A DNA stretch of 64,000 nucleotides from an uncultured archaeon (GTDB lineage: Archaea; Aenigmatarchaeota; Aenigmatarchaeia; QMZP01). The position numbers and the translations under genes were made by a program. The notes below the pieces were generated by a model. The model was not told the DNA's origin. It saw only the letters and a program-made list of their open reading frames with translations, and ran no database searches. Every line of letters begins with the position of its first letter. Position 1 is the first letter of the stretch. Below, piece after piece: positions 4,746 through 63,296 of this stretch. Where the stretch lies: assembly GCA_964607835.1 (NCBI GenBank), contig CAZSLL010000005.1, forward strand, positions 4,785 through 68,784, written 5' to 3'.

Positions 4746-5711
4746 CTATCGCTGGTTCTCGTAAAGCTCTTTGGCCACATTCTCCAGCATTACCTCTCCC
4801 CTGACCTCCTCCCTGAAGAGGGTGAGGGTGAACACCTTATTTGAGCTGAACTTCTTCCTTATCTCCTCAAGCCTGCTGAGCTGGAGCTTCCTCTTCTCCC
4901 TGCAGAAATCGCACCCGTGATTCTCGGGTATTAGCTGGTTGACGTAAACGCTCTTGACAGGGATTCCCGAGTGCTTAAGGAAAATAGCGGAGCGCTCTGA
5001 CTCCAGGATGCTCATGGCCTCTGGTATCATGACTATGTTGTAGCTCGTCCGCCCGGGGTCGGAGAGTATCTCCTTGGCCTTCTCTATCCTGGCCTTCATT
5101 TCCTCGAGCTTCTCGAGGGCAACATCCTTCTCCTCTTCCTGGTCTCCAGAACCCAGGAACTTCTTGAACACCCCGGTGATGCCTGAGAGCCTCATCCTGA
5201 GCTTTATTATCTTTCCCACCCAGGATTCCAGGACGTCTGGAAGCGAGAGCAGCCTCAGGGTATGGCCCGTGGGGGCTGTGTCAAAGACTATGATGTCGTA
5301 CTCGTTTGAGTTCATGTACCTCAGGAACCGGTCAAAGCTGGCTATCTCGTCAATGCCCGGAGTCATGCCCGCCATGTCCAGGGTGTCCTCCAGGCCAAGC
5401 CCCTTGAGGGAGGATATCTTGTTCAGCTGCGGGGTGAGCATGTCCTTGTACTCTTTCATGGACTTGTCAGGGTCTATCTCCACTGCCCAGAGGTTCTTCC
5501 CGAGCTTCTGGATGTCCCCGCCAATCTTCTTGTCAAAAGAGTCAGCCAGGGAATGCGCGGGGTCAGTGGATATGACCAGTACTTTCCTTCCTTTTTTGGA
5601 GAGGTGGAGCGCAGTGGCTGCTGCCACAGATGTCTTTCCCACGCCGCCCTTGCCTGAGAAGAAAATGAAGCGGGTGTGCTTCTCCTTTCCCTTGAGCTTG
5701 TCAAGCACCAT
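4746..5711 (-). CDS. ArsA/Get3-family ATPase (arsenite-pump/TRC40-like)
   Basis: It carries the deviant Walker A motif GKGGVGKTS and the family signature DPAHSL. Family similarity covers the full length. Confidence 0.8.
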   Translation of the reverse strand: MVLDKLKGKEKHTRFIFFSGKGGVGKTSVAAATALHLSKKGRKVLVISTDPAHSLADSFDKKIGGDIQKLGKNLWAVEIDPDKSMKEYKDMLTPQLNKISSLKGLGLEDTLDMAGMTPGIDEIASFDRFLRYMNSNEYDIIVFDTAPTGHTLRLLSLPDVLESWVGKIIKLRMRLSGITGVFKKFLGSGDQEEEKDVALEKLEEMKARIEKAKEILSDPGRTSYNIVMIPEAMSILESERSAIFLKHSGIPVKSVYVNQLIPENHGCDFCREKRKLQLSRLEEIRKKFSSNKVFTLTLFREEVRGEVMLENVAKELYENQR

Positions 5712-5770: not shown

Positions 5771-5932
5771 TTTGGACGCCTGCCTGTCCAAAAAAGGTTC
5801 AGTTGCGGCAGCGGTCTTTTTCGGGAGCGTTTTTTGGACGCCTGCCTGTCCAAAAAAGGTTCAATTGCGGCAGCGGTCTTTTTCGGGAGCGTTTTTTGGA
5901 CGCCTGCCTGTCCAAAAAAGGTTCAAGCGGAG
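5771..5932. repeat. 62-bp tandem direct repeat, about 2.5 copies, each with a 10-bp-stem hairpin (TTTTTTGGAC/GTCCAAAAAA)
   Basis: The unit is tggacgcctgcctgtccaaaaaaggttcaNttgcggcagcggtctttttcgggagcgtttt. Copies start at 5773, 5835 and 5897. The unit resembles the 3' flank and intron region of the adjacent tRNA-Cys gene. Confidence 0.7.
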
Positions 5933-5935
5933 GCG

Positions 5936-6127
5936 GGGAGATTCGGAACCAATGTTCGCAACATCTGCCAAGCGGCAGCGGTGTTTCCGCGAACGCTTTT
6001 GCACGTTTATCATGTGCAAAAGGGCTCTGTCGAACCCCGTTAACCCGCTTTCAGCAACGCCCTGTCCTGAAAAGGGCTGCACTGCAGGCGGGCACATGGC
6101 CGTTCTGTCACCTCCGCTTTAATGCCC
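5936..6127 (-). tRNA. tRNA-Cys(GCA)-like gene with two insertions: an anticodon-loop intron of about 33 nt and a T-loop intron of about 89 nt
   Basis: On the minus strand I can pair the acceptor stem GCGGAGG/CCTCCGC with discriminator U, the D-arm ACAG-AACGGCCA-TGT, the anticodon stem CCCGC/GCGGG with loop CTGCA|intron|AA (anticodon GCA), and the T-stem CGGGG/CCCCG split after TTCGA. I folded this by hand. Confidence 0.5.
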
Positions 6128-6167: not shown

Positions 6168-7112
6168 TTATTTGTTTGCAGAGAGCATTAAACTGCCTTC
6201 CCTGACAGCGTCCGAGTATTTCTTCAGGGCGGCATCGAAACTATCCCCCATCTCCAGGTATGACCTGATGCTCTCCACGCGCTCTACATAGTCATTGCAC
6301 TCTTTCTCATGCTTGCCCTTTCCGTTGGGTCCGGCGAAATAGCACTTGAGGGCCTCTTCCATGTCACCATCCTCATGAACCTCATAGTGCTTGAGAAGGG
6401 CCATGCCAGTCACAATGTTTGCGTAGGGGGATTCCCTCACCCTTTCCCAGACCTCCTCAGGGCCTCCCCCGAAGATATGGGCATACTTCTCAAGGGCATA
6501 CTCTCCTATTTCCTTTCTGGAATCATTGAATCTCTTTCCTTTGCCTGAGAAGAGCTCTCTCGTCTCGGCGCTTGAGACCTGGTTGAGCTGCATGTATCCG
6601 ACATTCCCTGTAATGGATTCAGCATCATGGTCTCCCCATGATTCCTTTCCTATCATTGCAAGAACGAGTTCAGGGTCGAGATTGAAATCACCTGCCACCT
6701 CATTCACGATACTCACGAAACCAGGTTCATCAGGTACGGTTGCAGCGCTCCTATAAGGCTCCGGCCCCGACCCCAGGTCTTCAGAGCTGAAGCCGGTCCT
6801 GGGGTTTATCATTGTTGGTTCAGGCACTAGGTCAGGGGCAGAGGCCGCCTTGGAAGGGTCAAAAGGAGGAGGCTCGTTCTCCTTCCAGGTTCCCTTTTGG
6901 CTCTCTTCCAGGAAATCCCTGTCCCTTTCATCGGCTTTACCTGGATGAGGCTGCCCAACATTCTCATAAGGATAATACATTGCATCAGCATCGTGGTCTC
7001 TCGGGATGCCAAAGAGGGCTGCAAGGCTCATGAATCCAGCAGCAGCTATCTCCACAGCGTATCTGGACACGAAGCCCCTTCCTTCACCAATCCCGGAGGT
7101 TTCTCTAGACAT
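6168..7112 (-). CDS. SLT-domain (lytic transglycosylase-like) protein with a low-complexity Pro/Glu-rich N-terminal region
   Basis: The C-terminal half contains the SLT motifs LVLAMIGKESWGD (catalytic Glu-Ser), GYMQLNQVSSAE and PYANIVTGMALLKHY...YFAGPNG. Confidence 0.5.
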   Translation of the reverse strand: MSRETSGIGEGRGFVSRYAVEIAAAGFMSLAALFGIPRDHDADAMYYPYENVGQPHPGKADERDRDFLEESQKGTWKENEPPPFDPSKAASAPDLVPEPTMINPRTGFSSEDLGSGPEPYRSAATVPDEPGFVSIVNEVAGDFNLDPELVLAMIGKESWGDHDAESITGNVGYMQLNQVSSAETRELFSGKGKRFNDSRKEIGEYALEKYAHIFGGGPEEVWERVRESPYANIVTGMALLKHYEVHEDGDMEEALKCYFAGPNGKGKHEKECNDYVERVESIRSYLEMGDSFDAALKKYSDAVREGSLMLSANK

Positions 7113-7161: not shown

Positions 7162-7965
7162 CTAAAGGAGAACCCTTTCTGGCCTCACCCTTCCCTGCTC
7201 CAGCCTGGCCAGAAGCCCCAGCCTTCCCTGGGTATCGTAAAGAGCGAAAAGCGCCTTTGGCATGCTGCCTTCAAGACCGGGAACCTGCTCTGCAGGAAGC
7301 TTTGCTCCCTGCCTGAGCCTGTCCAGGACCGGCCCTTCCACAGTGAACCCCGGGAAGCCCACCCTATCCAGCGCTATCTCCACAGGGAACAGGCATTCCG
7401 GCCCCCGGCTCCGGAGCTGGTCAAAAGTGCAGGCCTCCTCTATCCTGAAGGGGCCTATGGCGGTCCTCCTCAGCCAGGCCATGTGGGCCCCTGCCCCGAG
7501 GTCCTCTCCGATGTCATGGCAGAGCTTCCTTATGTATGTCCCTGCCTCGCAGCTCGTGCGGAAGCGCACCTCCCGGCCCTCCACAGAGAGCACCTCGAAG
7601 GAGGTCACCTTTCTCTGCCTCTCCCTTCTGGCCACAGCGCTCCTTCTTGGAGGAACCTGGGTTATCAGCCCCGTGAACTTCCCGGCAGACCTGGCTATCT
7701 GGTCCTCTGAGAAATCGCCGTGCACCCTCATTGAACCCTCGTATTCCTTGTCCAGGCCCAGGAGAACGGGCATGGCCTTGGTGGCCTCGTCAAGGGCTAT
7801 GAGCATGAGCCCGGTAACAGAGGGGTCAAGGGTTCCTGAGTGTCCCGCCTTCCTGGTTTTGAGAATGGCCTTGGCCTTCTCAACGCACTGCATGCTGGTT
7901 AGCTCTCTGGGCTTGTCGAGCAGGAGTATTCCCCTGCTCACCGGGTTTGGGCTATTCCCTGCCAT
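7162..7965 (-). CDS. cbf5: tRNA/rRNA pseudouridine synthase Cbf5 (TruB family, H/ACA RNP catalytic subunit) with a C-terminal PUA-like region
   Basis: It contains the TruB/Cbf5 catalytic motifs LLLDKPRELTSMQCV and HSGTLDP. Confidence 0.8.
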   Translation of the reverse strand: MAGNSPNPVSRGILLLDKPRELTSMQCVEKAKAILKTRKAGHSGTLDPSVTGLMLIALDEATKAMPVLLGLDKEYEGSMRVHGDFSEDQIARSAGKFTGLITQVPPRRSAVARRERQRKVTSFEVLSVEGREVRFRTSCEAGTYIRKLCHDIGEDLGAGAHMAWLRRTAIGPFRIEEACTFDQLRSRGPECLFPVEIALDRVGFPGFTVEGPVLDRLRQGAKLPAEQVPGLEGSMPKALFALYDTQGRLGLLARLEQGRVRPERVLL

Positions 7966-9564: not shown

Positions 9565-11481
9565 TCACTCTTTGGGATTTGCTTTCTTCTCCGCTTTCTG
9601 CGCGGGAGCTGCTGACTCCTCCGCTTTCTGCGCGGGAGGATTTGCTTTCTTCGGGGGTGACTCTTTTTCCTCCCCTCTCTTCGGGGGTGACTCTTTTTCC
9701 TCCCCTCTCTTCGGGGGTGACTGCTGTTTACTGGAAAGCTCAGACTCTGCCAGTTCCTCGTAGTCCTCGAGTACACCACTGATGCCATTTCTCCCGGGCT
9801 TATGCCTGGGCCTGGGCTTCTTCTTTGAGGCTGCCTCCTTGGCATGCTTCTCGGCATTCTCGGCCTTCTTAACCCTTTCCTTCTTGAATGGGGTTCTGTT
9901 CTCCCTGACCCATTTCATCACAGTAGGCTGGTCCTTGTAGTAGAGGTTGATAATCCTGCAAACGTCATGGAAGTACACAACAGAATGGGCCTGCATCCAT
10001 TCTATAACCTTCTTCCGCCTCTCGAGCTCTTCGCTCATCCTCCCGAAGGCCAGCCCCTCTTCAAATGATATCCTCTGGAGAATCTCAGAGCTGCCCGTGC
10101 TCTCCCTGTATACGTCCTCAGACGGAATCCAGGAGAATGACTCCTTGGTATGGGCCCGCCCTGTGTGGGAATCCACTGACTGGATTTCCACTATCCTCTT
10201 GACCCTTCTGGATGATTTGCCCTTCTCCTTTGCGTTGGTCATCACGACCATGGCGTCCAGGGCCTCCAGAAGGGAGGGCGAGAGCTCTATGGGAGGGGTA
10301 CTCAACCTCTTTATGACGTCTTCCACAGAGCCTGCGTGTATGGTGCCAAGCGAGGCGTGGCCCGAGGCCATTCCCTGGAACATGACGTAGGCCTCTTTTC
10401 CCCTGACCTCGCCCACCACAACGTATGACGGGTTCTGCCTGAAGGACTCTCTGAGAAGGTCGTAGAGCCCTATCTCCCCGTACCTTTTCCCGTTCGCCTC
10501 TGGCATACCGAAGCCCCTTCTGGATACCGATGGAATCCAGTTATCGTGGGGCAGGTTGATTTCCCTTGTGTCCTCGATAGAGATTATCTTGTCCTCGGGG
10601 GGTATGAACATGCTTATGGCGTTCAGGAAGGTGGTCTTTCCGGTGGAGACGCCCCCGCATATCATTATCGAGACATTGTACTGGCAGAGCAGCCAGAGAT
10701 AGGCAAGCATGGATGATGATACAGTGCCCATGTTTAGGAGGTCTATGGGCGAGAACGGGTGGCTCCTGAACTTCCTTATCGAGAAGCTCGGGCCCTTGGT
10801 GGTGACGTCCTTTGCCAGCGAGGCCTGCACCCTGGAGCCGTCCGGAAGGCTTCCGTCGAGCAGGGGAGACGCGTAGGATATGTACCTTCCGCACCTCTCA
10901 GCAATCTTGATTACCAGGTCAGAGAGGTAGTCATTGTCCCTGAAGGTAAGATTGGTCCTTATGGAGCCGAATACCTTATGAACCACGTATATCGGGCTTC
11001 CCACGCCGTTGCAGCCTATGTCCTCTATGTAGGGGTCGTGCATCAGGGGCTCTATCTCGTTGAGGCCTATGAAGTCACGGGCTATGTAGTACATCACCCT
11101 CTGGAAGGGCTTCCCGCCGAGGGTGAGGCCGAGCTCGTCAATGGCCTCCACGACCTTGCCCTGGAGATAGGACAGGGTCTTCTCGTCCTTCTGGAGGCTC
11201 TCCAGCTTGACGTCTATGACCTCCCTGAGGGCCTCCTCTATACTTGATATGGCCTTGTGCTCAGCAGGCCTGAGGCCAGGCTCCTCCAGGCTGTACAGAA
11301 GGGACTTCTCTTTCTGTGACCACTTTATCCTGGCGTGGGCATGGGGATCTATAAGGGGGTACCTTACATCAACCTTTGATGCGCTCTTGAATCCTGGTAT
11401 AACTACCAGCTTCTTGGGCTCCCTGAAGGAGAGAGGCTTATATCTCTTCTCGCTTTTCCTGAACAGACCCCTGAGCGCCAT
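9565..11481 (-). CDS. FlaI/VirB11/PilB-family secretion ATPase with a C-terminal Lys/Glu-rich repeat extension
   Basis: It has Walker A GGVSTGKTTFLNA, the Asp and His boxes, and Walker B VVVGEVRG. The C-terminus carries repeats (SPPKRGEEKESPPKRGEEKE...APAQKAE) encoded by the dispersed DNA repeats. Confidence 0.8.
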   Translation of the reverse strand: MALRGLFRKSEKRYKPLSFREPKKLVVIPGFKSASKVDVRYPLIDPHAHARIKWSQKEKSLLYSLEEPGLRPAEHKAISSIEEALREVIDVKLESLQKDEKTLSYLQGKVVEAIDELGLTLGGKPFQRVMYYIARDFIGLNEIEPLMHDPYIEDIGCNGVGSPIYVVHKVFGSIRTNLTFRDNDYLSDLVIKIAERCGRYISYASPLLDGSLPDGSRVQASLAKDVTTKGPSFSIRKFRSHPFSPIDLLNMGTVSSSMLAYLWLLCQYNVSIMICGGVSTGKTTFLNAISMFIPPEDKIISIEDTREINLPHDNWIPSVSRRGFGMPEANGKRYGEIGLYDLLRESFRQNPSYVVVGEVRGKEAYVMFQGMASGHASLGTIHAGSVEDVIKRLSTPPIELSPSLLEALDAMVVMTNAKEKGKSSRRVKRIVEIQSVDSHTGRAHTKESFSWIPSEDVYRESTGSSEILQRISFEEGLAFGRMSEELERRKKVIEWMQAHSVVYFHDVCRIINLYYKDQPTVMKWVRENRTPFKKERVKKAENAEKHAKEAASKKKPRPRHKPGRNGISGVLEDYEELAESELSSKQQSPPKRGEEKESPPKRGEEKESPPKKANPPAQKAEESAAPAQKAEKKANPKE

Positions 11482-25267: not shown

Positions 25268-25288
25268 AACCCAGGGAGTTTGTTCGAG

Positions 25289-25568
25289 CCGGGGTGGCGG
25301 AACGGCTAGCGAGCTGGCCAGATTAAGAGTGATTGAATGCGGTCTGAAAGACCGGCGGTCAGCCGTCCGTAAAACGCGCACGACTGGAAACACAATCGCA
25401 CTGGAGCGTATGCGGCTGAGAAGCAGCCGATTGTGCCTTCAATCGTGTGTCCGAAAGGACGTGCAGGTTCAAAGAACCCTTTTGCGCAGGCAAGCGCGCA
25501 AAAGCGTTCGCGGAAAGAACGCTACCGCACTAATGCGGTCGGGTCTGGGAATCCTGTCCCCGGCGTAT
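25289..25568 (+). tRNA. tRNA-like gene of about 280 nt; the acceptor and T-arm halves bracket long insertions, and the T-loop insertion carries the conserved core
   Basis: The 5' end GCCGGGG pairs with CCCCGGC plus G at the 3' end. The T-stem GCAGG...CCTGT is split after TTCAA by an insertion that begins AGAACCCTTTTGCGC...GCGCAAAAGCGTTCGCGGAAA. An anticodon-like hairpin CGGT-CTGAAAG-ACCG is present, which would read GAA (Phe), but I could not fully resolve the D-arm or the remaining insertions. Confidence 0.35.
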
Positions 25569-25595: not shown

Positions 25596-25660
25596 TTAAG
25601 TTGCTCCCCTGCTTGCGACTGAACCGGTTGGACCAAGCGGGAGCGTCCGTAAGCAGGGAT
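25596..25660 (+). ncRNA. Pseudoknot-like structured element, copy 1 (GCTCCC-CTGCTTG...GGGAGC...AAGCAGGG)
   Basis: It has two crossing helices (GCTCCC/GGGAGC and CCTGCTT/AAGCAGG). Against the copies at 31116 and 31239 the second helix shows a compensatory change (CCCGCTT/AAGCGGG). Confidence 0.45.
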
Positions 25661-30903: not shown

Positions 30904-31048
30904 GCGGGAGTGTCCGAGCGGTCAAAGGGGCAAGGTTGAGGGCCTTGTGGCTTAGAACCCTTTTACAGGAGCCAAAGCGTCCGCAAAAGCGTTCGCGGAA
31001 AACCCGTAAAGGGGTAAGCAATGCCTTCGCAGGTTCGAATCCTGTCTC
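30904..31048 (+). tRNA. tRNA-Leu(GAG) with an insertion of about 66 nt in the variable arm that carries the conserved core
   Basis: The folded parts are acceptor GCGGGAG/CTCCCGC plus A, a class-II D-arm (GAGCGGTCAAA), anticodon stem CAAGG/CCTTG with loop TTGAGGG, and an intact T-arm GCAGG-TTCGAAT-CCTGT. The insert is AGAACCCTTTTACAGG...CCGCAAAAGCGTTCGCGGAAAACCCG.... Confidence 0.6.
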
Positions 31049-31115
31049 CCGCATTACACCTTTCTTTACAGGAGGTCACGACCTTCCTCAAGAAAGCCGT
31101 GGGAAAGAAATAATA

Positions 31116-31209
31116 ATGCATGTTGCTCCCCCGCTTGAGTGCCTGCCGGCCCATCCCCCTGCACAGTGGCCGGACGGGAAAGGTTTTCGGGAGCCTCTTG
31201 TAAGCGGGG
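31116..31209 (+). ncRNA. Pseudoknot-like structured element, copy 2 (long variable loop)
   Basis: ATGCATGTTGCTCCCCCGCTTG...GGGAGCctcttgtAAGCGGGG. The same two helices as copy 1 are present, and an inner GCCGGCC/GGCCGGC hairpin sits in the loop. Confidence 0.45.
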
Positions 31210-31238
31210 ATTGTATTCATCAATCTGGTTGGAAGCTT

Positions 31239-31289
31239 ATGCGTGTTGCTCCCCCGCTTGGAGAAGGCGGGAGCCTCTTGTAAGCGGGG
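31239..31289 (+). ncRNA. Pseudoknot-like structured element, copy 3 (short loop)
   Basis: ATGCGTGTTGCTCCCCCGCTTGgagaaggcGGGAGCctcttgtAAGCGGGG. Confidence 0.45.
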
Positions 31290-31346
31290 TATCATGTCTC
31301 CTGCTTTACGTTTTCTCTTTTTTGGAGTCGAGGGCCGAGATGCCCG

Positions 31347-33405: not shown

Positions 33406-35132
33406 ATGTATATATTAGGAATAGGGTGCTTCTATCACGACTCCTCAGCAACCCTGCTGAAGGACGGAAAGGTAGTCGCGGCAGCAGAGGAAGAGAGGTT
33501 CAGCAGGAAGAAGCATGACAACTCATTCCCTTTCAGGGCCATCGAATACTGCCTTGAGAGCCAAGGGATATCAATGAAAGGGGTTGACAGTGTGGCTTTC
33601 TACGAGAAGCCCATGATCAAGTTCGAGAGAATCCTGCATCAGCACATAGACGCTTTTCCAAGAAGCATGAAGACCTTTCTTGCGGGCATGCCTTCGTGGA
33701 TGACCGAGAAGCTTCGGGTAACAAGGATAGTCAGGAAGAAGCTCGGCTACGGGGGAGACGTGCTCTTCATTGACCATCACCTGGCGCACGCCGCCAGCGC
33801 TTTCATGGCCAGCCCCTTCCAGGAAGCGGCTGTTCTTGTGATGGACGCAGTTGGGGAATGGGCCACCACCAGCTACGGCGTAGGGGAAGGTAATGGGATA
33901 AGGCTTATGAAGGAGATAAGGTTCCCGCATTCGCTTGGTTTGCTCTATTCCACCATAACAGCCAACCTTGGTTTCAGCGTGAACAACTCGGAGTACAAGG
34001 TCATGGGGCTGAGCGCCTACGGGAACATGGACAGGAAGGAAAACCCCTATTACAGTAAGCTCAGGAAGGTTATTGATATCAGAGAAGATGGGAGCTTTGG
34101 ACTGGACATGGAATATTTCAGTTACCACTACTCTGACATGATGCCTTCTGACAAGCTGTGCGAGCTGCTGGGAGGGGAGCCAAGGAAAGGGGGGGGGAAG
34201 AGCTGGCAAAGCGGCACAAAGACATCGCAGCGGCCGTGCAAATGGTGACTGAGGACGCTGTCCTGAAGGCACTCAAACATGCCCACAAGGAAACGGGAAA
34301 GGAAAACCTGGTCATGGCAGGAGGGGTGGCCCTGAACAGCGCCATTAATGGCAAGGTCCTGAGTAAGACCCCATTCAAGAGGCTCTGGGTCCAGCCGAAT
34401 GCCACAGACGGGGGCGCCTCCATGGGAGCTGCTTTGTTTGCACACTGCTCTGTAATCGGAAAGGAAAGGAGTTATGTGATGATTGAACCCTGTATAGGGC
34501 CTGGGTTCTCCTCTAATGATATCAGGGCCAGTCTGGAGGATAATGGGGTCCCTTTCAGGGAGCTCGGGAGCGACAGGGAAATCGTGAGGGAAACCGCAAA
34601 ATCACTCACTGAGGGAATGGTTGTCGGATGGTTCCAGGGAAGGATGGAATGGGGTCCCAGGGCCCTGGGGAACAGGAGCATACTCGCTGACCCCACCATC
34701 CCTGGCATGAAGGACAGGATTAACGAGAGAGTAAAGCACAGGGAAGGGTTCAGGCCTTTCGCTCCTGCTGTGTGCGAAGAGGACGCGGGCAGGTTCTTCG
34801 AGGTGGACAGACCCCTGCCGGACCCCTCCAGGTTCATGCTCATGGTGTGCCCTGTGAAAGAGGCATGGATGAAGAGAATACCAGCCGTCACCCACGTTGA
34901 CGGAACCGCCAGGGTGCAGGCAGTGAGCAGTAAAACTAGTCCATTGTTCCATTCACTGATAAAGGAGTTCGGAAGGCGGTCCGGGGTTCCGGTTCTGCTC
35001 AACACCTCTTTCAACGTAAGGGGTGAGCCCATAGTGTGCACGCCCGGGGATGCCCTCGATTGCTTCAGGAAGACAGGGATAGACTTGGTGGTAATGGGCA
35101 GGTTTTTAATTAACAAAAGCAATATTGAATAG
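33406..35132 (+). CDS. Carbamoyltransferase (NodU/CmcH family) interrupted by a frameshift at a G9 homopolymer
   Basis: The N-terminal domain is Kae1-like (ILGIGCFYHDSSATLL, IDHHLAHAASAF) and the C-terminal domain is a carbamoyltransferase domain. The reading frame changes at GGGGGGGGG (34189-34197). Confidence 0.7.
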
Positions 35133-38231: not shown

Positions 38232-39047
38232 ATGGCACTGCAGAGGATGACGGCAAGGAAGGCCAGGATTTCTGACATAGTCAACGGCAGCTGGGTGAAG
38301 AGGGAGGGTATGGAGCCCAGCTTCGTGATTACCGGCTCGGGCGAGAAGATATCAAGGGCCAGGGTCATGGGAACCATAGTGTCTGACTTCTTCGCAGAGG
38401 ACGGGAATTTCGGAAGCGTGACCCTGGATGACGGCACAGACACCATGAGGGCCAAGACATTCAAGACCGTAAAGCCCCTGGATTCATTCAGGCCCGGGGA
38501 CACCGTGGACATGGTAGGCAAGGTAAGGGAGTACAACGGGGAGATTTACATTATTCCTGAGGTCATCGCAAAGGTTCAGGACCCAAACATGGAGCTCCTC
38601 AGGAGGCTCGAGCTCATAAGCAAGGCCAGAAACCCTCCCCCGAAGAGAGGGGAGGATTCAGGAGAGCCCCCGAAGAGAGGGGAGCAGACTGGCAGCCCTT
38701 CCGCACAGGAAGCCGGCCCAGGAGCAGGGCAGTCCTTTGTCCAGGGTCAGGAGACAGGCCAGGCAACTCCTCCGCAGGCAGAGCAAGCAACACCTTCAGA
38801 AGAAAAGACTGGTTCCACCAAGGAGGAGGACAAGGCAAAAGAGGAGCAGAGGAAGAAAGAGGAGGAGGACTCCAGGATAAGGAAGGACATCCTCTCGGTC
38901 ATAGAGTCCAACCCAGAGGGGGTGGAGTACGGCGAGATAAGCCAGAAGGTGCAGGCCGAGGAGTCCAGGATAGAGAGCGTGCTCAACGACATCCTTGCAG
39001 AGGGCATATGCTACGAGCCCACCCCAGGGAAAGTCAAGAAGATCTAG
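38232..39047 (+). CDS. RPA-like OB-fold ssDNA-binding protein with a C-terminal winged-helix domain and a PPKRGE-repeat linker
   Basis: OB-fold segment (VMGTIVSDFF...GEIYIIPEVIAK), a low-complexity linker containing PPKRGEDSGEPPKRGEQTG, and a C-terminal wH-like domain (RPA32-like architecture). Confidence 0.55.
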   Translation: MALQRMTARKARISDIVNGSWVKREGMEPSFVITGSGEKISRARVMGTIVSDFFAEDGNFGSVTLDDGTDTMRAKTFKTVKPLDSFRPGDTVDMVGKVREYNGEIYIIPEVIAKVQDPNMELLRRLELISKARNPPPKRGEDSGEPPKRGEQTGSPSAQEAGPGAGQSFVQGQETGQATPPQAEQATPSEEKTGSTKEEDKAKEEQRKKEEEDSRIRKDILSVIESNPEGVEYGEISQKVQAEESRIESVLNDILAEGICYEPTPGKVKKI

Positions 39048-43990: not shown

Positions 43991-44995
43991 TTATCTTGCG
44001 CCCTCTGCTTCCTTCTCTATCCTGTTCCTCTCGGACACGGAGAAGCTCTTGGAGTCGTTGTTGTAGGCGGCTATGAGCTCCTCTGCTATGACCTGGGACA
44101 GGCTCTTTGTCTTCCTGAACGAGGCCCTGTATATGCCCTGGGAAAGGTGCCTGAGGGCTATGTCCAGCCTTCTCTGGGGAGAGGCGATTACAGAGTTCCT
44201 GGCTATTATGCCACCCAGCCTGTAGGATGCAACCTCCTCGAGCAGGGCGGCGTTCTCAATGGCCCCCACAAGGACCTGGACCGGGTTCTGCTTGGTCCTC
44301 TTCTCTATGAGAATGAATGCCTCTTTCATGCTGTTGTAGAGCCTGGGGGTCTTGCCCACGTTGTTTCCTGAGGTAATCTTGTGCTTCTTGCCCCTGTGGC
44401 CGGCCACCATGAGCTTGTTCATGAACCTCTCGATTACCGAAATCTTTCTTTTCTGGATGCTGTCCCTGTTGTACCTCCCGCCGGTCCTTGGCACAGCAAG
44501 GGTGTCCAGGTTCATGTACTTCTTCAGGCCGGCATCTTTAAGGGCAACGTCAGAGGTGTCCCATCTGTTGAAAAGGAGCATCCTCACACCATGCTGTCTC
44601 AGGAGGGAGACCCTCTCTTCTGTTTGCTCCCCTCTCTTCGGGGGAGACTCTGTTTGCTCCCCTCTCTGCGCGGGGGGCTTCTCTTTCATCTCCGCTTTCT
44701 GCGCGGGGGGCTTCTCTTTCATCTCCGCTTTCTGCGCGGGGGGCTTCTCTTTCATCTCCGCTTTCTGCGCGGGGGCTGATGACTGCTCCGCTTTCTGCGC
44801 GGGCCTTGCATCAGGCTTCCTGTCCTCATTCTTCTCAGGAGAGGGCTTCTTCACCTGAGGCTTTTCCTCGGGTGGTTTTGCCGGGGGTTTCTCATTAACA
44901 TGCTGTGCCTCAGTCTTTGCATGGTCAGCCTTGCCTGTGCTGGCATTGGCCTTGTCCTCTTCAGGGGGCTTTGCCCCGGTCTTCTCCTCAGTCAT
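43991..44995 (-). CDS. rps7: Ribosomal protein uS7 with a long N-terminal Lys/Glu-rich repeat extension of about 150 aa
   Basis: The C-terminal 190 aa are S7 (NSMKEAFILIEKRTKQNPVQVLVGAIENA...). The N-terminus contains three copies of KPPAQKAEMKE and also SPPKRGEQTE. Confidence 0.85.
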   Translation of the reverse strand: MTEEKTGAKPPEEDKANASTGKADHAKTEAQHVNEKPPAKPPEEKPQVKKPSPEKNEDRKPDARPAQKAEQSSAPAQKAEMKEKPPAQKAEMKEKPPAQKAEMKEKPPAQRGEQTESPPKRGEQTEERVSLLRQHGVRMLLFNRWDTSDVALKDAGLKKYMNLDTLAVPRTGGRYNRDSIQKRKISVIERFMNKLMVAGHRGKKHKITSGNNVGKTPRLYNSMKEAFILIEKRTKQNPVQVLVGAIENAALLEEVASYRLGGIIARNSVIASPQRRLDIALRHLSQGIYRASFRKTKSLSQVIAEELIAAYNNDSKSFSVSERNRIEKEAEGAR

Positions 44996-49633: not shown

Positions 49634-50233
49634 TCACTTTTTCTCTTTCAGCTCCGCTTTCTGCGCGGGGGCTGCTGACTCCTCCGCTTTCTGCGCGGGG
49701 GCTGCTGACTCCTCCGCTTTCTGCGCGGGGGGCTTCTCTGTTTTCCTCTCCCCTCTCTTCGGGGGAGACTCTTTCTGCTCCCCTCTCTTCGGGGGAGACT
49801 CTGTCTGCTCCCCTCTCTTCGGGGGAGACTTTTCAGAGCGCTCCAGTATGGCCTGCCTCTTCTTGTCATCCAGCTTGAGCTTCGTTATCATTATGTTCGA
49901 GGGCTGCAGCGGCATGTGCACCTCTGAGCCGTCGCTCTTCTTGGTTTTGAGCTCCTCCACGTATACCCTGCTCTTCCCAACATCGACCCGGTCAACGGTC
50001 CCGAGCTTCTTCCTGAGGGAGCCCCTGAGGACCTTTACCTCGTCTCCCTTGCGAACCCGCATGGACCTCCTGCTGTAGCGCTTCCTGAGCTCAGGGGACA
50101 GGTGCACGGAGAGGAAGGACTGCCTCACATGGGACGGGGCGTTGAGCCTGTATTTCCTCTGCTTCCTGGGCTGGACGCTCGCCAGCCAGCTCTTTGACCA
50201 GTTCTTAATCATGCCTATCTTCCTCTCCTTCAC
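49634..50233 (-). CDS. rpl24: Ribosomal protein uL24 with a C-terminal repeat extension
   Basis: The KOW region is VRKGDEVKVLRGSLRKKLGTV. The C-terminus has three copies of SPPKRGEQxE and three of APAQKAEES. Confidence 0.8.
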   Translation of the reverse strand: MKERKIGMIKNWSKSWLASVQPRKQRKYRLNAPSHVRQSFLSVHLSPELRKRYSRRSMRVRKGDEVKVLRGSLRKKLGTVDRVDVGKSRVYVEELKTKKSDGSEVHMPLQPSNIMITKLKLDDKKRQAILERSEKSPPKRGEQTESPPKRGEQKESPPKRGERKTEKPPAQKAEESAAPAQKAEESAAPAQKAELKEKK

Positions 50234-52585: not shown

Positions 52586-53572
52586 TCACTCCTTCTCGGT
52601 TTCCTTTGGAGGCTTATCCTCTTCCTTCTTCTCTGCGGGCTTTTCCCCTGACTCCTCCTTCTTGGGCCCGGGTTTCTTTTCATCGGGCTTATTTTCCGGT
52701 ATCTCTTTCACAGGCCCATCTTTTCCGGCTTCTTTGGGCTTCTCCTCCAACTCCGCTTTCTGCGCGGGGGCTGATGACTCCTCCGCTTTCTTTACGGGTT
52801 TTCCCTCTTTCTTTTCCGAATCCTTTTCTGGCTTCTTCCCGGACTCTTCCTTCTTGGCAGGGGAAGGCTTTTCTGCTCCCTTCTCTGTCTGCTCCCCTCT
52901 CTTCGGGGGAGACTCTGTCTGCTCCCCTCTCTTCGGGGGAGACTCTTTTTCCTTGTCCTCCCCGCTCACGTCAATCCTGTGCTCCACCTTGTCCCTTATC
53001 TCGCCTGTGATGTCCTGGAACTTGCTCATTATCTTGACCTTGACCCCAATCTTTCCCGGCCTGGTCTGGGCCTCCTCGAAGCCTGAGTCCACCAGGGTCC
53101 TGGCTGGCTCGCCGCAGTGCTTGAGATAGCCCTCCTGGAACTTGCCCACCACGCCCTTTCCGCCGCCCAGCTTGCCGGATATCACTATCTGGGCACCTAT
53201 GGCGCCTGAGTTCATGATTCTCTTCATGGTGAGGTTCCCTATTTTCTTGTAGTTGTACCCCTTCTCCAGGGCGGAGGAAATCTGCTTGGCAACTATCCTA
53301 GAGTCGAGGTTGGGGTTCTTTATGACCTTGACGTCCAGCTGGGGGTTGTCCAGGCCAAACCTCAGCTTGATGGCCTCGGTCATGTCATTGATGTTCTTGC
53401 CGCCCTTGCCGATTATCCTTCCGGGCTTGTTAGTGTAAATGAGAATCTTGAGCCCCAGGGGAGTCCTCTGGAGTTCGGTCTTGGAGTAGTCCCCAAGCGG
53501 GAACTTCTTCCTTATGAACTCGTCTATCTGGGCCTCCTTTATTCCCTGGTTGATGAAGAAATCCTTAATCAT
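52586..53572 (-). CDS. rps3: Ribosomal protein uS3 with a long C-terminal repeat extension
   Basis: It has a KH domain (GRIIGKGGKNIND) and the S3 C-domain. The C-terminal 120 aa contain KESPPKRGEQTESPPKRGEQTE and SSAPAQKAE. Confidence 0.85.
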   Translation of the reverse strand: MIKDFFINQGIKEAQIDEFIRKKFPLGDYSKTELQRTPLGLKILIYTNKPGRIIGKGGKNINDMTEAIKLRFGLDNPQLDVKVIKNPNLDSRIVAKQISSALEKGYNYKKIGNLTMKRIMNSGAIGAQIVISGKLGGGKGVVGKFQEGYLKHCGEPARTLVDSGFEEAQTRPGKIGVKVKIMSKFQDITGEIRDKVEHRIDVSGEDKEKESPPKRGEQTESPPKRGEQTEKGAEKPSPAKKEESGKKPEKDSEKKEGKPVKKAEESSAPAQKAELEEKPKEAGKDGPVKEIPENKPDEKKPGPKKEESGEKPAEKKEEDKPPKETEKE

Positions 53573-56268: not shown

Positions 56269-57135
56269 TTATTGCAGAATATGGCTGAGCTTTATTGCAT
56301 CAGGATTTTTCCTGAGCTTCCTTTTGGCCTTCTCAATCTTCTGCCTAACAGCCTCGCCGCTATCCAGGTATTTCTCGGCAATTTCCCTGGGCCTAAGCTT
56401 ATTGAACACATTCTCCTCGAAATATACCCTCTCCCATGTGTCCAGTGACGAGAGTATATTATCGCAGAGCCCCGCCATCTGCTCTTTCGCCGCCTCATCT
56501 TCTGGCAGGCTGTCTACTGAAGGCACAAAGTCTATAAGCGAAGCATCGCTTTCAGGAAAAGAGGCATCAAGGCTAAGGTAGTATGGATGGCCCGCATTGT
56601 TGCGCATCAGCTCAAGCTCATAAAGGCTGAATGTGGCGTCAATCTCTCTCTGGATTTCCTCTGCATTCTCAGGGATTCTCTGCATATCCTCGAGCATACC
56701 CAGATACCTGCGAATCCTTTTCTGGAGAATTGGCCCGATCCTGTATGCCCCCCTGTTGTCTGTGATATAGCTGAATATTTTAAATCTTATCCAAGAGGTA
56801 AGATATGTGCTCGGCATTAAGCCCCTTTCGGGCTCGTATTTCTCCAGGCCCCTCAGAAGCCCCATGTTTCCCTCCTGAACGAGATCCATTAACGGGAACC
56901 CGGGCCCAGAATACATTCCTGCAACCTGCCTGACCATCCTCTGGCATCCCTCGACAAGCTCTTCCCTGGCTTTGCTGGCAGACTCTTTGTCACCGTTTTT
57001 CATGGCAAAGTGAACCGAATCAAAGGCTTGCTTGTCAAAATAGAGCCTTCCCGAGAAATCTGCCTCCTTGCTGTAATGATACTCAGTGTCATCGGTATGG
57101 AAAGGCCCTGTATAGGGCTTGCTTCTCTGTTTCAT
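56269..57135 (-). CDS. Sigma-70-family RNA polymerase sigma factor-like protein (regions 2, 3 and 4)
   Basis: Region 2 is MDLVQEGNMGLLRGLEKYEPERGLMPSTYLTSWIRFKI (compare DLIQEGNIGLMKAV.KF...STYATWWIR). A region-3-like segment is SLDASFPESDASLIDFV. Region 4.2 is ...KLRPREIAEKYLDSGEAVRQKIEKAKRKLRK. It lies directly upstream of, and co-directional with, S13-S4-S11. Confidence 0.7.
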   Translation of the reverse strand: MKQRSKPYTGPFHTDDTEYHYSKEADFSGRLYFDKQAFDSVHFAMKNGDKESASKAREELVEGCQRMVRQVAGMYSGPGFPLMDLVQEGNMGLLRGLEKYEPERGLMPSTYLTSWIRFKIFSYITDNRGAYRIGPILQKRIRRYLGMLEDMQRIPENAEEIQREIDATFSLYELELMRNNAGHPYYLSLDASFPESDASLIDFVPSVDSLPEDEAAKEQMAGLCDNILSSLDTWERVYFEENVFNKLRPREIAEKYLDSGEAVRQKIEKAKRKLRKNPDAIKLSHILQ

Positions 57136-59003: not shown

Positions 59004-59214
59004 CGAACATTTATAAACCCAGCATGTATACTATGCATATTGCGTGTGCCCGACGCAACCGGCTGTTTCGGGGAAGCAGTTTCGAACACGGCCGGCGTAT
59101 ACGGGCGCAGGGCAAAGCCTTTCAGGCTCTTGTTCTCGTCTTGTAAATGAGGAAATATAACAGTGTTATATCGGCTTGCAGAGCCGTCACTGTACAGAGA
59201 AGGATGTGATTGAA

Positions 59215-60615
59215 ATGAAGGAGAAGCTGGAGAATGTTAATGATTATGAGTGGCACCTCCCAAAGAGCGCCAGGAACGAGATGAGGGTGGATGCCAGGGT
59301 GTTCATGAACAAGCAGCTCATGGACGCGGCAGAGGACGCTGCTGTGGAGCAGCTCACCAACGTTGCCACCCTTCCCGGGGTCATAAACCCTGTTATAGGC
59401 CTCCCCGACATGCACTGGGGCTACGGCCTTCCCATGGGGGCTGTATCAGCGTTCGATGCCCAGGAGGGAATAATATCAGCAGGGCTCTGCGGATTTGACA
59501 TAAACTGCGGAATCAATCTCATAAGGACCAGCCTCAGGGCTGACGAGATAAGGCCCAGGATAAAGCAGCTCATGTCCGAGCTCTTCAATACCATACCCTG
59601 CGGGGTAGGCACCAAGGGAAAGCTCAGGCTCACCCCTGACCAGCTTGATGAGGTTTTGGTCAAGGGCGTGGACTGGGCAATAGAGAACGGCTACGCCACC
59701 AAGGAAGACAAGGCCACCACAGAGGAGGGCGGCCGTATGGAGGGAGCAGACCCCTCCAAGGTGTCTGACCTTGCCAAGAAGAGGGGAGCCCCCCAGCTGG
59801 GCACCCTGGGAGCAGGAAACCACTTCCTCGAGGTCCAGGAGGTCACTGACGTCTTTGACGAGGGAAACCCCTGGGGAGTGAAGGAGAAGGGGCAGACCCT
59901 CATCATGCTGCACTGCGGCTCCAGGGGGCTTGGCCACCAGGTGGCCACTGACTACCTCAAGATACAGGAGCAGGCAGTCAAAAAGTACAACATATGGCTC
60001 CCAGACCAGCAGCTCTCCTGCGCACCAGCCACATCCCAGGAGGGCCAGGACTTCTTCGCAGCCATGAAGGCCGCGGTGAACTACTCATTCACCAACAGGG
60101 CGGTCATGACCAAATGGATAAGGGAGACGTTCGAGCGGGTGTTCGGCCAGTCATGGAAGGACATGGGTATGCAGAATGTTTACGCCATAGCCCACAATAT
60201 CGTGAAGCTCGAGGAGCACAGGATAGAGGGCAAGACCAGGAAGGTCTACGTGCACAGGAAGGGAGCAACCCGCTCCTTCCCGGGAACCCCTGTCATCATT
60301 GCGGGCTCTATGGGCACCTCATCCTACCTGCTCAAGGGCACGGAAACCGCCATGCAGAAGACCTTCGGCAGCTCTGCCCACGGAGCAGGCAGGTCAATGA
60401 GCAGACACGCCGCAATCAAGAGGTTCTGGGGCGGCAAGGTCAGGGAGGACCTGGCAAAGCAGGGCATAACTGCGCAGAGCACCCACCCCAAGGTCCTGTC
60501 AGAGGAGGCCCCCAAGGCATACAAGGACGTGGAGGCTGTCATCGAGACCGTCCACAATGCAGGCATATCCGAGAAGGTGGCCAGGATGGTTCCAATGGGA
60601 GTGGCGAAGGGTTAA
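59215..60615 (+). CDS. rtcB: tRNA-splicing ligase RtcB
   Basis: Full-length RtcB similarity (GAGNHFLEVQEV, HCGSRGLGHQVATDY, AHNIVKLE). Confidence 0.9.
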   Translation: MKEKLENVNDYEWHLPKSARNEMRVDARVFMNKQLMDAAEDAAVEQLTNVATLPGVINPVIGLPDMHWGYGLPMGAVSAFDAQEGIISAGLCGFDINCGINLIRTSLRADEIRPRIKQLMSELFNTIPCGVGTKGKLRLTPDQLDEVLVKGVDWAIENGYATKEDKATTEEGGRMEGADPSKVSDLAKKRGAPQLGTLGAGNHFLEVQEVTDVFDEGNPWGVKEKGQTLIMLHCGSRGLGHQVATDYLKIQEQAVKKYNIWLPDQQLSCAPATSQEGQDFFAAMKAAVNYSFTNRAVMTKWIRETFERVFGQSWKDMGMQNVYAIAHNIVKLEEHRIEGKTRKVYVHRKGATRSFPGTPVIIAGSMGTSSYLLKGTETAMQKTFGSSAHGAGRSMSRHAAIKRFWGGKVREDLAKQGITAQSTHPKVLSEEAPKAYKDVEAVIETVHNAGISEKVARMVPMGVAKG

Positions 60616-62959: not shown

Positions 62960-63067
62960 GAAACCACTGATTATATTATTGCTGACCTAGTATAAAAACA
63001 AAACCCGGACGCGGAAGCGGCCGCAGGTGAGCTTAATTTAAATCATAAGACAAGAAGGAAAATGATG

Positions 63068-63296
63068 GGCCCGTAGTTCAATGGATTATGGCCTGCCTTG
63101 GCGGGCTGTCCGGAGAGAATGCGGGATTGCGGATCCTGTGATCTGGGTTCGATAGAACCCTTTTGGCCGGTAAACGTCCAAAAGCGGTGTCCGTAAGGAC
63201 ACCATCTGCCAGGGAACCTGACAGAAGCGTTCGCGGAAAGGACGCTGCCGAACTGAGATTTCAGAGGCATTGTTCACGCACGCCCCAGCGGGCCCA
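63068..63296 (+). tRNA. tRNA-like gene of about 229 nt with a T-loop insertion carrying the conserved core, plus further 5' extra sequence; isotype unresolved
   Basis: Acceptor GGGCCCG/CGGGCCC plus A. T-stem CTGGG/CCCAG is split after TTCGA by TAGAACCCTTTTGGCC...CCAAAAGCGG...AGAAGCGTTCGCGGAAAGGACGC.... I could not fold the D and anticodon arms cleanly. Confidence 0.4.

Follow-up and report, generated by a model that had tools for sequence, protein, structure and literature searches.

This work concerns a stretch of 64,000 nucleotides (nt) from an uncultured archaeon of the Aenigmatarchaeota (GenBank assembly GCA_964607835.1, contig CAZSLL010000005.1, positions 4,785 to 68,784 of the forward strand; hereafter the window), and a family of structured insertions, here called the cassette, that interrupts the tRNA genes in it. 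The host is a DPANN archaeon of the tiny symbiotic type; the closest named relatives of its EF-1alpha are found in Candidatus Aenigmatarchaeota metagenome-assembled genomes (MAGs), with 76-79% identity, and the window encodes an archaeal eRF1, aEF-1alpha, an NFACT protein, RtcB, many ribosomal proteins and a TruB/Cbf5-like protein. An earlier note, made by a model from the letters of the window, had claimed four tRNA genes with long non-canonical insertions that share a conserved structured core, and both the genes and the shared motif are borne out here. The window contains the 18-mer CARAAGCGTTCGCGGAAA four times (5984-6001 on the minus strand, 25499-25516, 30984-31001 and 63222-63239), where 0.01 occurrences are expected and none of 100 dinucleotide shuffles of the window attains four, and every one of the four copies lies inside a tRNA gene.

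These genes are hidden from standard tools. ARAGORN reports no tRNA gene on the raw 64-kb window, and the sole Rfam match at the gathering threshold is a tRNA-Leu at 30904-31053 (39.8 bits) with an insert of about 80 nt in its variable region. The exon-intron boundaries were proposed by reading the four loci, and after removal of the inserts in silico ARAGORN returned clean cloverleaves for tRNA-Cys(GCA), tRNA-Ser(GGA), tRNA-Leu(GAG) and tRNA-Arg(GCG); removal thus restores a canonical mature tRNA for all four genes, and each gene holds one copy of the cassette. The identities proposed earlier for the Cys (minus strand) and Leu loci agree with these calls, and the two loci that had been left without names are the Ser gene, with two further introns, and the Arg gene, with one. 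The four loci themselves were placed correctly, while their exact ends had been off by 1-10 nt, with about 10 nt for Cys, and two sets of copies had been missed, namely tandem units 3′ of tRNA-Cys and a diverged copy 3′ of tRNA-Leu. That finders see no tRNA, and that a gene may carry two to three inserts, could also be explained if the loci were decaying tRNA pseudogenes invaded by a repeat. We give this explanation hardly any credence, as the exons are intact and yield canonical cloverleaves with correct identity elements once spliced, no uninterrupted tRNA gene was found in the 64 kb, and a related MAG (L029) keeps in its tRNA-Ser(UGA) gene the same three-intron architecture as the window tRNA-Ser(GGA) gene, with exons 93% identical.

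The tRNA-Cys(GCA) gene (5926-6117, minus strand) is 192 nt long and contains two introns, whose removal gives a 71-nt ARAGORN tRNA-Cys(gca). Its T-loop intron, at position 59/60 (5940-6028, minus), is a full cassette of 89 nt that scores 62.5 bits against a covariance model built from 35 copies and has a fold z-score of -3.1; the core of this copy (5984-6024, minus) consists of the hairpin CCCUUUUGCAC..GUGCAAAAG, the turn CGUUCGCG and then GAAA. The second one, in the anticodon loop at 37/38 (6050-6081, minus; 32 nt by ARAGORN), had been anticipated in the earlier note, and its removal gives back the loop CUGCAGA. This short intron begins with UGCAGCCCUUUU / UGCAGCCCUUUUCAGG..GGGC, resembling the 5′ end of the cassette, and a short D-region intron in L002, GAACCCCUCC..GAAGGGGU, is of the same kind; such short introns may be cassette remnants without the core.

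The tRNA-Ser(GGA) gene (25288-25565, plus strand; 278 nt) is interrupted in the D-loop, the anticodon loop and the T-loop, and its spliced form is an ARAGORN tRNA-Ser(gga). The T-loop intron at 59/60 (25474-25551, plus) is a full cassette of 78 nt with its core at 25477-25516 (plus); it is the top match of the covariance model (69 bits) and folds (z = -3.3) into a closing helix, the hairpin and a 3′ hairpin. Removal of the D-loop intron (25306-25369, plus; boundaries of D-loop introns are approximate, here within a few nt) yields a valid D-arm, and that of the anticodon-loop intron (25390-25441, plus; 52 nt, with an internal stem CACAAUCG/CGAUUGUG) gives CACGA-CUGGAAA-UCGUG. In the tRNA-Leu(GAG) gene (30904-31053, plus), which becomes an ARAGORN tRNA-Leu(gag), the insert sits in the variable arm, as the earlier note had it: the intron at 30956-31021 (plus) is a short form of the cassette without the 3′ hairpin (50.8 bits), and an Aenigmatarchaeota MAG (L036) has a copy at the same variable-arm position. 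The tRNA-Arg(GCG) gene (63067-63296, plus; 230 nt, spliced form an ARAGORN tRNA-Arg(gcg)) has a D-loop intron of 28 nt (63089-63116, plus), whose removal gives back GUUC-AAUGGAUUA-GAAU, and a T-loop intron at 59/60 (63154-63282, plus; z = -4.6) that the covariance model matches in two parts, 63154-63205 (32.7 bits) and 63213-63247 (26.9 bits). In this copy the CAAAAG of the hairpin (63179-63184) is parted from GCGTTCGCGGAAA by an insertion of about 38 nt, and therefore the Arg T-loop intron is a composite of two partial cassette copies. The fold z-scores of the four cassette introns of the window range from -3.1 to -4.6.

Two further sets of copies lie just behind tRNA genes. From the first base after the tRNA-Cys discriminator, 2.5 tandem units of 62 nt (UGAACCUUUUUUGGAC..GUCCAAAAAACGCUCCCGAAAAAG..) run over 5771-5925 (minus strand); these degenerate cassette copies, which are not introns, are seen by Tandem Repeats Finder with period 62 and 98% match, score 22.9 bits each with the covariance model and carry U-A/A at layer 1 of the three-strand pattern described below. 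The diverged copy in the tRNA-Leu trailer (31058-31110, plus) begins 4 nt past the gene and reads CUUUCUU..AAGAAAG, turn CCGUGG, then GAAAGAA, and it is the sole purine mirror repeat of the window with a complementary pyrimidine strand upstream; similar trailer copies are present in L029 and L093.

Archaeal introns of this kind are recognized through a motif of the bulge-helix-bulge (BHB) type, whose 5′ strand consists of an exon helix a, a 4-nt helix c, a 3-nt bulge cut after its second base and a helix d, and whose 3′ strand consists of d′, c′, a 3-nt bulge cut after its second base and a′. BHB motifs, on whose presence at the junctions the earlier note had staked its case, are found in strict form in Cys and in relaxed form in Ser, Arg and Leu. 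The Cys T-loop intron is a strict hBHBh′ motif, with helix a CGGGG/CCCCG, helix c UUCG/CGAA (U54-G57), bulges ACA/UCU and helix d GAGCC/GGUUC, and splicing it would give a mature T-loop UUCGACU. The relaxed motifs of the window, which were read by eye, have 3-4 of the 4 central pairs and one irregular helix: in Ser c is UUCA/UGGG and one C is bulged in d; in Arg c is UUCG/CGCA (3/4 pairs) with one extra A; in Leu c is GCUU/AAGC, the bulges are AGA/AAU, the outer helix is weak and the closing helix d is ACCCUUUUAC/GUAAAGGGGU, 10 base pairs (bp) long. This geometry upholds a split T-loop in three genes and moves the point of the split, which lies at 59/60 after TTCGAC, TTCAAA and TTCGAT, and not after TTCGA or TTCAA as claimed earlier.

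Over the family, a rigid hBHBh′ scorer, which requires 5/5 pairs in helix d, no fewer than 3/4 in c and 4/5 in a, and bulges of exactly 3 nt, and which allows G.U, accepts 32 of 139 copies, the remaining 107 being left unclassified because neither a shifted helix nor a mismatch in helix d is tolerated. In the strict copies c′ tracks its target: UUCG is met by CGAA, UGAA or AGAA, UUCA by UGGG, UGAA or UGGA, and UCCG by UGGG, and outside the T-loop UUAG is met by CUGA (16S rRNA) and CUUA by GAAG (anticodon loop). The window also encodes the tRNA-splicing ligase RtcB (rtcB, 59176-60615, plus; Pfam RtcB, E = 2.8e-155). Since the junctions form strict or relaxed BHB motifs, they support reading the inserts as introns whose excision is predicted from these motifs.

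The anatomy of the core is described with positions numbered on the Ser copy (25473-25524). From 5′ to 3′ the cassette consists of GAACC, which pairs with a 3′ GGUUC, the hairpin C-UUU(U)...(A)AAA-G, the turn CG-N4-CG and GAAA(A). The conserved GAACC (G2-C6) is one strand of helix d, and the hairpin is formed by pairing of C7-U11 and further, variable bases with A32-G36 and their variable counterparts. Family-wide, 92.1% of the cells of the hairpin are paired, compared with 77.6% after shuffling and at most 57% in slid controls, and double-sided changes number 154 versus 52 in shuffles, with variants such as UUUA/UAAA, UUUG/CAAA and CCU...AAACG; the alignment of the hairpin was fitted to the model, so these figures lean towards structure. 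The compensatory changes claimed earlier thus stand at the level of the family, while the Leu copy, with TTTTA in place of TTTTG, does not have the TTTTG/CAAAAG pairing as written. As to which strand folds, G.U and A.C counts in the hairpin are 30 and 37. The turn (C37-G38, four bases, C43-G44) has an almost invariant stem, with one compensatory CC...GG and two wobble cases, and a variable loop, mostly UUCG or UUCA, also CUUC, CUCC, UGUA, UCAA, or long inserts instead; the stem fits a closing helix, for which covariation gives weak support. The third strand is G45-A46-A47-A48(-A), after which class 1 copies, the type of the window, continue R-N3-GCU-N-CCGC, often with a 3′ hairpin; in class 2 copies (Alti-, Micr-, Woese- and Pacearchaeota) the hairpin is polypyrimidine/polypurine.

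Other pairings and motifs were considered and rejected. The hairpin GCGUUC/GAACGC preferred by RNAfold has uncompensated variation at 49-52, and the U-A/A variants break its pairing; a pairing of GCGG (42-45) with the conserved downstream CCGC fails as the A42 and A45 variants leave CCGC unchanged. By inspection, a K-turn or L7Ae-binding motif has no GA/AG arrangement in the required register under both strand assignments, and hammerhead, pistol and twister cores have no match in register. A second conserved hairpin module, CCCAGGAGCAACAU(A/G)AACAAUCCUGGG, occurs in related introns either 3′ of the core or inside the main hairpin loop (L016 about 6340-6400, minus; L029 about 1700-1770, minus; L018 873-953; L093 11468-11548; L033 444-526). 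As this module recurs, the introns seem to be put together from several modules that can be reused.

A compact, highly conserved junction with an invariant GAAA and CG-N4-CG beside a helix, located in introns, could suggest that the core is a small self-cleaving or self-splicing ribozyme acting without the splicing endonuclease EndA. Nevertheless, the junctions obey the protein-dependent BHB rule with cut sites outside the conserved core, the same core is found in trailers, where excision is unnecessary, and with Rfam 15, whose families include hammerhead, twister, pistol, hatchet, HDV-like and group I, nothing relevant beyond tRNA was obtained, either for the window with a limit of E <= 5 or for the Ser locus with one of E <= 10. 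Therefore, a ribozyme seems to us a very improbable explanation.

The core also shows a covariation, not seen in the earlier note, that couples three strands. Pattern matches with a real hairpin have C/G/G at positions 7/36/45 in 53 cases and U/A/A in 12, with one U/A/G that is probably chance and no other combination. Read back from G36, the purine strand of the hairpin gives the base of the third strand in 134/135, 134/135, 135/135 and 135/135 copies at layers 1 to 4, and the matching layers include 16 cases of U-A/A at layer 1 and 2 of C-G/G at layer 4. In 17 of the 24 polypurine copies, which show at least 8 different purine patterns, the mirror extends over the full hairpin length, covering 7-12 layers (8-14 overall); for example, at L079:7551 GAAAAGAAGG mirrors GGAAGAAAAG, and the match extends to the G that forms a U.G wobble. 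In the layers beyond the fifth, 82 of 103 positions of the polypurine copies show identity, while after swapping of third strands between copies the mean is 42, the highest value is 59, and none of 2000 swaps attains 82. Longer homopurine runs go with longer mirrors (Spearman 0.57, p about 1e-12). The four window introns have short mirrors of 4-6 layers. A mirror repeat cannot be joined by antiparallel Watson-Crick pairing. A pyrimidine tract, its complementary purine tract and the mirror purine tract follow one another on a single strand, and the pattern has both the base code and the strand order that are the signature of a purine-motif triple helix, as in class II intrastrand triplexes (PMC4666352). 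We claim a three-strand interaction and leave its geometry aside, the triplex being one geometry that the base code would suggest; a minor-groove arrangement of the third strand is conceivable, and the ViennaRNA folds carry no base triples.

The cassette is not private to one lineage and spans several DPANN phyla. The exact pattern CCCTTTT-N10-40-AAGCGTTCGCGGAAA, scanned over one genome per species (185,579 species genomes), gave 36 loci, 34 of them in archaeal MAGs that are either DPANN or unclassified (Aenigmat-, Micr-, Alti-, Woese- and Pacearchaeota, a bin that carries the label 'Thermoplasmatales', and bins named 'uncultured archaeon'). The other two, in a Flavobacterium and a Desulfovibrio genome, have no hairpin and are taken as chance, about 2 chance matches being estimated for the pattern, and none of 4 viral-contig matches, likewise put down to chance, has a real hairpin. 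A looser pattern found at least 120 loci in metagenomes. The covariance model gave 7 matches in the window, 52 among the loci from genomes and 90 among 100 loci from metagenomes, and about 140 distinct copies were parsed among the matches listed.

Brute-force excision of the cassette leaves an ARAGORN tRNA across the junction in 31 of 39 reference-genome copies, with many anticodons. Position 59/60 is the hot spot, 42 of the 140 copies lying in the T-loop; many others are at the canonical 37/38, in anticodon loops read as Leu-UAG, Trp-CCA, Gly-UCC, Arg-UCU and Leu-CAA, and further copies occur in the D-loop, in the variable arm and directly 3′ of complete tRNAs. Two copies in L055 (350-411 and 992-1083, plus) interrupt the 16S rRNA gene, the second with a strict BHB (a GCUGG/CCAGC, c UUAG/CUGA), and therefore the cassette also serves as an rRNA intron. 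Other copies stand in intergenic clusters, promoter-proximal and alongside other GC-rich hairpins. Those at L090 (about 5300-5700, minus), L097 (180-370), L122 (about 1400-1790, minus) and L133 (2350-2880) start after an AT-rich promoter-like stretch with 2-3 cassette cores, which are followed by highly repetitive GC-rich hairpins (e.g. GGGGUGUGCG..CACACCCC, GGGCGAUAGCCC), and such clusters may form a larger unannotated non-coding RNA. A CRISPR-like array, in which the core would be the repeat and the interior of the hairpin the spacer, was considered for them and rejected, as these clusters of structured hairpins have no regular repeat-spacer arrangement.

Copies outside exons, together with the tandem arrays, could also be expected of a DNA-level element similar to the PIT/BoxC triplex repeats of bacteria, either an intrastrand-triplex or hairpin repeat of class II order (pyrimidine, purine and reverse-Hoogsteen strand) or a MITE-like element spreading as DNA, for which splicing of the RNA would merely render insertions into stable-RNA genes tolerable. 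Purine-motif triplexes are chemically best established for DNA, and the strand order and mirror rule of the cassette are exactly those of the class II triplex motifs (PMC4666352). On the contrary, the orientation of the cassette is always sense to the host RNA gene, its ends are tailored to form a BHB with each target, with c′ covarying with the exon, which argues for selection on RNA, and helices c and d of the strict-BHB copies have many U.G and almost no A.C pairs, though the scorer that selected them itself permitted G.U. Moreover, no transposase or recombinase is associated with the cassette, and there are neither target-site duplications nor copies in viral contigs; among approximately 49 open reading frames (ORFs) of the window that were scanned, Pfam detects neither a reverse transcriptase nor a transposase. 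An element of this sort is, in our judgement, an improbable explanation.

Several observations suggest that the cassette has spread within genomes. In the window similar intron sequences occupy four genes and two positions of one genome, and in the MAG CAYMDJ01 a single hairpin variant, with an identical internal C.U mismatch (GCCC[A/U]GUAAACGUGC), recurs at 59/60 in at least 5 different tRNAs, which points to recent intragenomic spread or gene conversion. Between the Ser genes of the window and L029 the cassette intron is 80% identical, while the D-loop and anticodon introns are unalignable (36-38%), and thus either the cassette is under constraint or the other introns are older.

Constraint is what would be expected if the cassette were a host-beneficial RNA module, namely a platform for a protein (a processing factor, a chaperone or an insert-bearing EndA), or a stable, probably circular excised intron or released trailer, with the tRNA and rRNA precursors as its vehicles. 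This main rival would account for that identity between the two Ser introns, for the conservation of the core sequence across several phyla, and for the trailer and promoter-proximal intergenic copies, whose retention is not explicable by spliceability; an 'L3' insert specific to EndA, found in diverse DPANN, is also linked to more disruption of tRNA genes in this group (Kaneta et al. 2018, PMC5829648). Nevertheless, cassette-free tRNAs coexist with interrupted ones in the same genomes, which means that tRNAs as such can mature without the cassette; a proliferating element would typically leave tandem, composite and degenerate copies like those seen here; and inspection revealed no K-turn or other known protein-binding motif. 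We therefore regard a beneficial module as unlikely, yet as an explanation to be taken seriously.

Based on the findings above, we propose that the inserts are BHB introns of one modular, probably mobile, structured RNA cassette common to DPANN archaea, a reading we hold to be reasonably probable. First, the tRNA gene would be transcribed with the cassette inside, and GAACC at the 5′ end of the cassette would join GGUUC near its 3′ end to form helix d. The next 4 intron nucleotides (c′) would then pair with the last exon nucleotides before the cut, which in the T-loop are the universal U54-U55-C56-R57, and the two 3-nt bulges flanking this 4-bp helix would complete the BHB. EndA is predicted to cut in both bulges, and RtcB to join the exons and probably to circularise the intron. 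The core would be stacked on helix d, with the purine strand running back along the hairpin so that G lies opposite C-G and A opposite U-A, and such a three-stranded module could lock the intron in a compact form that keeps its ends together and the BHB exposed. Being compact and self-contained, the cassette could occupy almost any loop of a stable RNA; the hot spot at 59/60 may arise because c′ needs only a 4-nt match and UUCR is present in every tRNA, and the likeness of d′ and c′ (GGUUC plus YGAA) to a T-arm could be another simple reason for it.

A number of points weigh against this proposal. The rigid BHB test is passed by a minority of the copies, and the motifs of the window Ser, Arg and Leu introns, being relaxed, depend on judgement by eye. 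Pfam detects no EndA domain among the scanned ORFs of the window, and its gene is therefore presumably elsewhere in the genome. In the Leu copy CCCUUUU is predicted to pair better with the downstream 3′ AAAGGGG than within the hairpin. A GGUUC partner is missing from the copies found in tRNA trailers and in intergenic clusters, from which it follows that the cassette is not solely an intron. The searches were seeded with the core sequence, so its conservation is partly imposed, and the copies are related, so their counts are not independent events. As regards the third strand, purine-motif (R·R-Y) triplexes are well established for DNA and deemed unfavourable for RNA third strands, and it is the antisense strand of the same sequence that would form a classical U·A-U / C+·G-C triplex. 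In periodic purine tracts, shifted antiparallel pairing between the third strand and the pyrimidine strand reaches 5-11 bp, compared with 7-12 mirrored, although it never exceeds the mirror length and does not predict the strict coupling of C/G/G to U/A/A.

Going further, the core might be a natural RNA fold not described before, namely a three-stranded helix of the purine motif (C-G·G, U-A·A) closed by a two-bp turn, which would act as a portable module in removable parts of stable-RNA precursors across DPANN and provide either a stable functional excised RNA or protein platform, or the active part of an intron that is mobile at the RNA level and inserts at any site where 4 nt of target can complete a BHB. 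We advance this idea tentatively, and think it rather more likely to fail than to hold.

The triple helices of ENE elements, MALAT1 and telomerase RNA are formed with a U-rich Hoogsteen strand (U·A-U) or with sequence-unspecific A-minor contacts. The cassette resembles them, and the A-strands of pseudoknots, in having a strand that folds back on a U-A-rich helix through a short stem-loop connector and is likely stabilising, but its third strand consists of purines that repeat the purine strand base by base, and only the antisense would give U·A-U. With class II intrastrand triplex repeats (PIT/BoxC/'TM'), which belong to G/C-rich intergenic DNA of bacteria and are linked to genome instability (Holder et al. 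2015, PMC4666352), it shares the order of pyrimidine, purine and mirror purine tracts, the dispersed multi-copy occurrence and the C-G·G and T-A·A code; unlike them, it is archaeal, its tracts are A/U-rich, it lies sense in stable-RNA precursors and its flanks form a BHB.

Both BHB introns and the 59/60 site are already known in DPANN, and the cassette introns are BHB introns with family character. In ARMAN-2 (Micrarchaeota) the tRNA-Cys(GCA) gene has a 59/60 intron of 13 nt that is cleaved in vitro by the epsilon2 EndA (PMC3239211). The window tRNA-Cys intron is alike in site, in its DPANN host and in the 4-bp helix with 3-nt bulges, and several introns in one gene are likewise found among archaeal non-canonical BHB introns; however, the 13 nt of ARMAN-2 have no internal structure, whereas the cassette inserts of the window are 66-129 nt long with a core common to several phyla, copies of which also lie outside introns. 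In Thermoproteales, according to the accounts in PMC3239211 and PMC10714607, related introns across tRNA genes and positions were read as transposition of BHB introns (Fujishima et al. 2010, Mol Biol Evol 27:2233). The cassette is similar in placing related introns in different tRNA genes and positions of one genome, while the Thermoproteales families are from TACK archaea and the cassette is from DPANN, crosses phyla, occurs also in 16S rRNA and trailers and has a covarying three-strand core, a distinction drawn from description and not from sequence; the scan of the 185,579 species genomes with the exact pattern gave no match in Thermoproteales. No Rfam family and no paper was found that describes the cassette, its distribution or the three-strand covariation, and the core sequence itself had no literature match, within a literature coverage that is incomplete and leaves room for an earlier description.

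Some features of the surroundings are recorded here as well. A TruB/Cbf5-type pseudouridine synthase gene (7162-7965, minus) lies about 1 kb from tRNA-Cys, and U55, the usual target of TruB/Cbf5, is part of the T-loop into which the cassette is inserted. A second repeat, GUUGCUCCCC(C/U)GCUUG ... GGGAGC(C/G)U..GUAAGC(G/A)GGGA, is present three times on the plus strand (25600-25660, 31122-31212 and 31245-31292), downstream of tRNA-Ser and tRNA-Leu and each time past an AT-rich stretch; its middle varies in length, it has no Rfam match, and GCUCCC/GGGAGC and CCCGCUU/AAGCGGG are complementary in a crossing, pseudoknot-like order. A sequence related to it follows the tRNA-Ser of L029, and these repeats may represent small structured RNAs transcribed together with the tRNAs. 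Next to tRNA-Cys is an ORF (6168-7112, minus) whose SLT lytic transglycosylase domain is of a peptidoglycan-degrading enzyme type, here in an archaeon, and an ORF of 288 amino acids (aa) at 56269-57135 (minus) has a bacterial-type Sigma-70 region 2 (Pfam E = 5e-16) amid archaeal genes and may have been acquired horizontally. Near-perfect tandem repeats of 30-33 nt are found in ribosomal protein genes (44657-44775, 49652-49834, 52872-52946, 9648-9722 and 38637-38698), located in S7 within the N-terminal extension and in L24 and S3 within the C-terminal extensions, and the resulting proteins are unusually long (S7 334 aa, S3 349 aa, L24 199 aa, S8 207 aa and S17 173 aa). Finally, a carbamoyltransferase is split into two overlapping plus-strand ORFs, 33406-34248 with the N-terminal and 34158-35132 with the C-terminal domain, which could reflect a frameshift, a sequencing error or a pseudogene.

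In conclusion, a purine-motif RNA triple helix, if true, would be a new natural RNA motif, and otherwise the unusually clean covariation needs another explanation. For some DPANN genomes, prediction had failed to give a complete set of tRNAs (Kaneta et al. 2018, PMC5829648), and the covariance model of the cassette is a direct handle for hidden tRNA genes, and for 16S introns as well, that standard tools miss. A single cassette that occupies many positions and genes across several phyla, and whose target match is 4 nt long, provides a concrete test system for the gain of BHB introns, a question open since the work on Thermoproteales, for which reverse splicing and DNA-level spread are the candidate routes.

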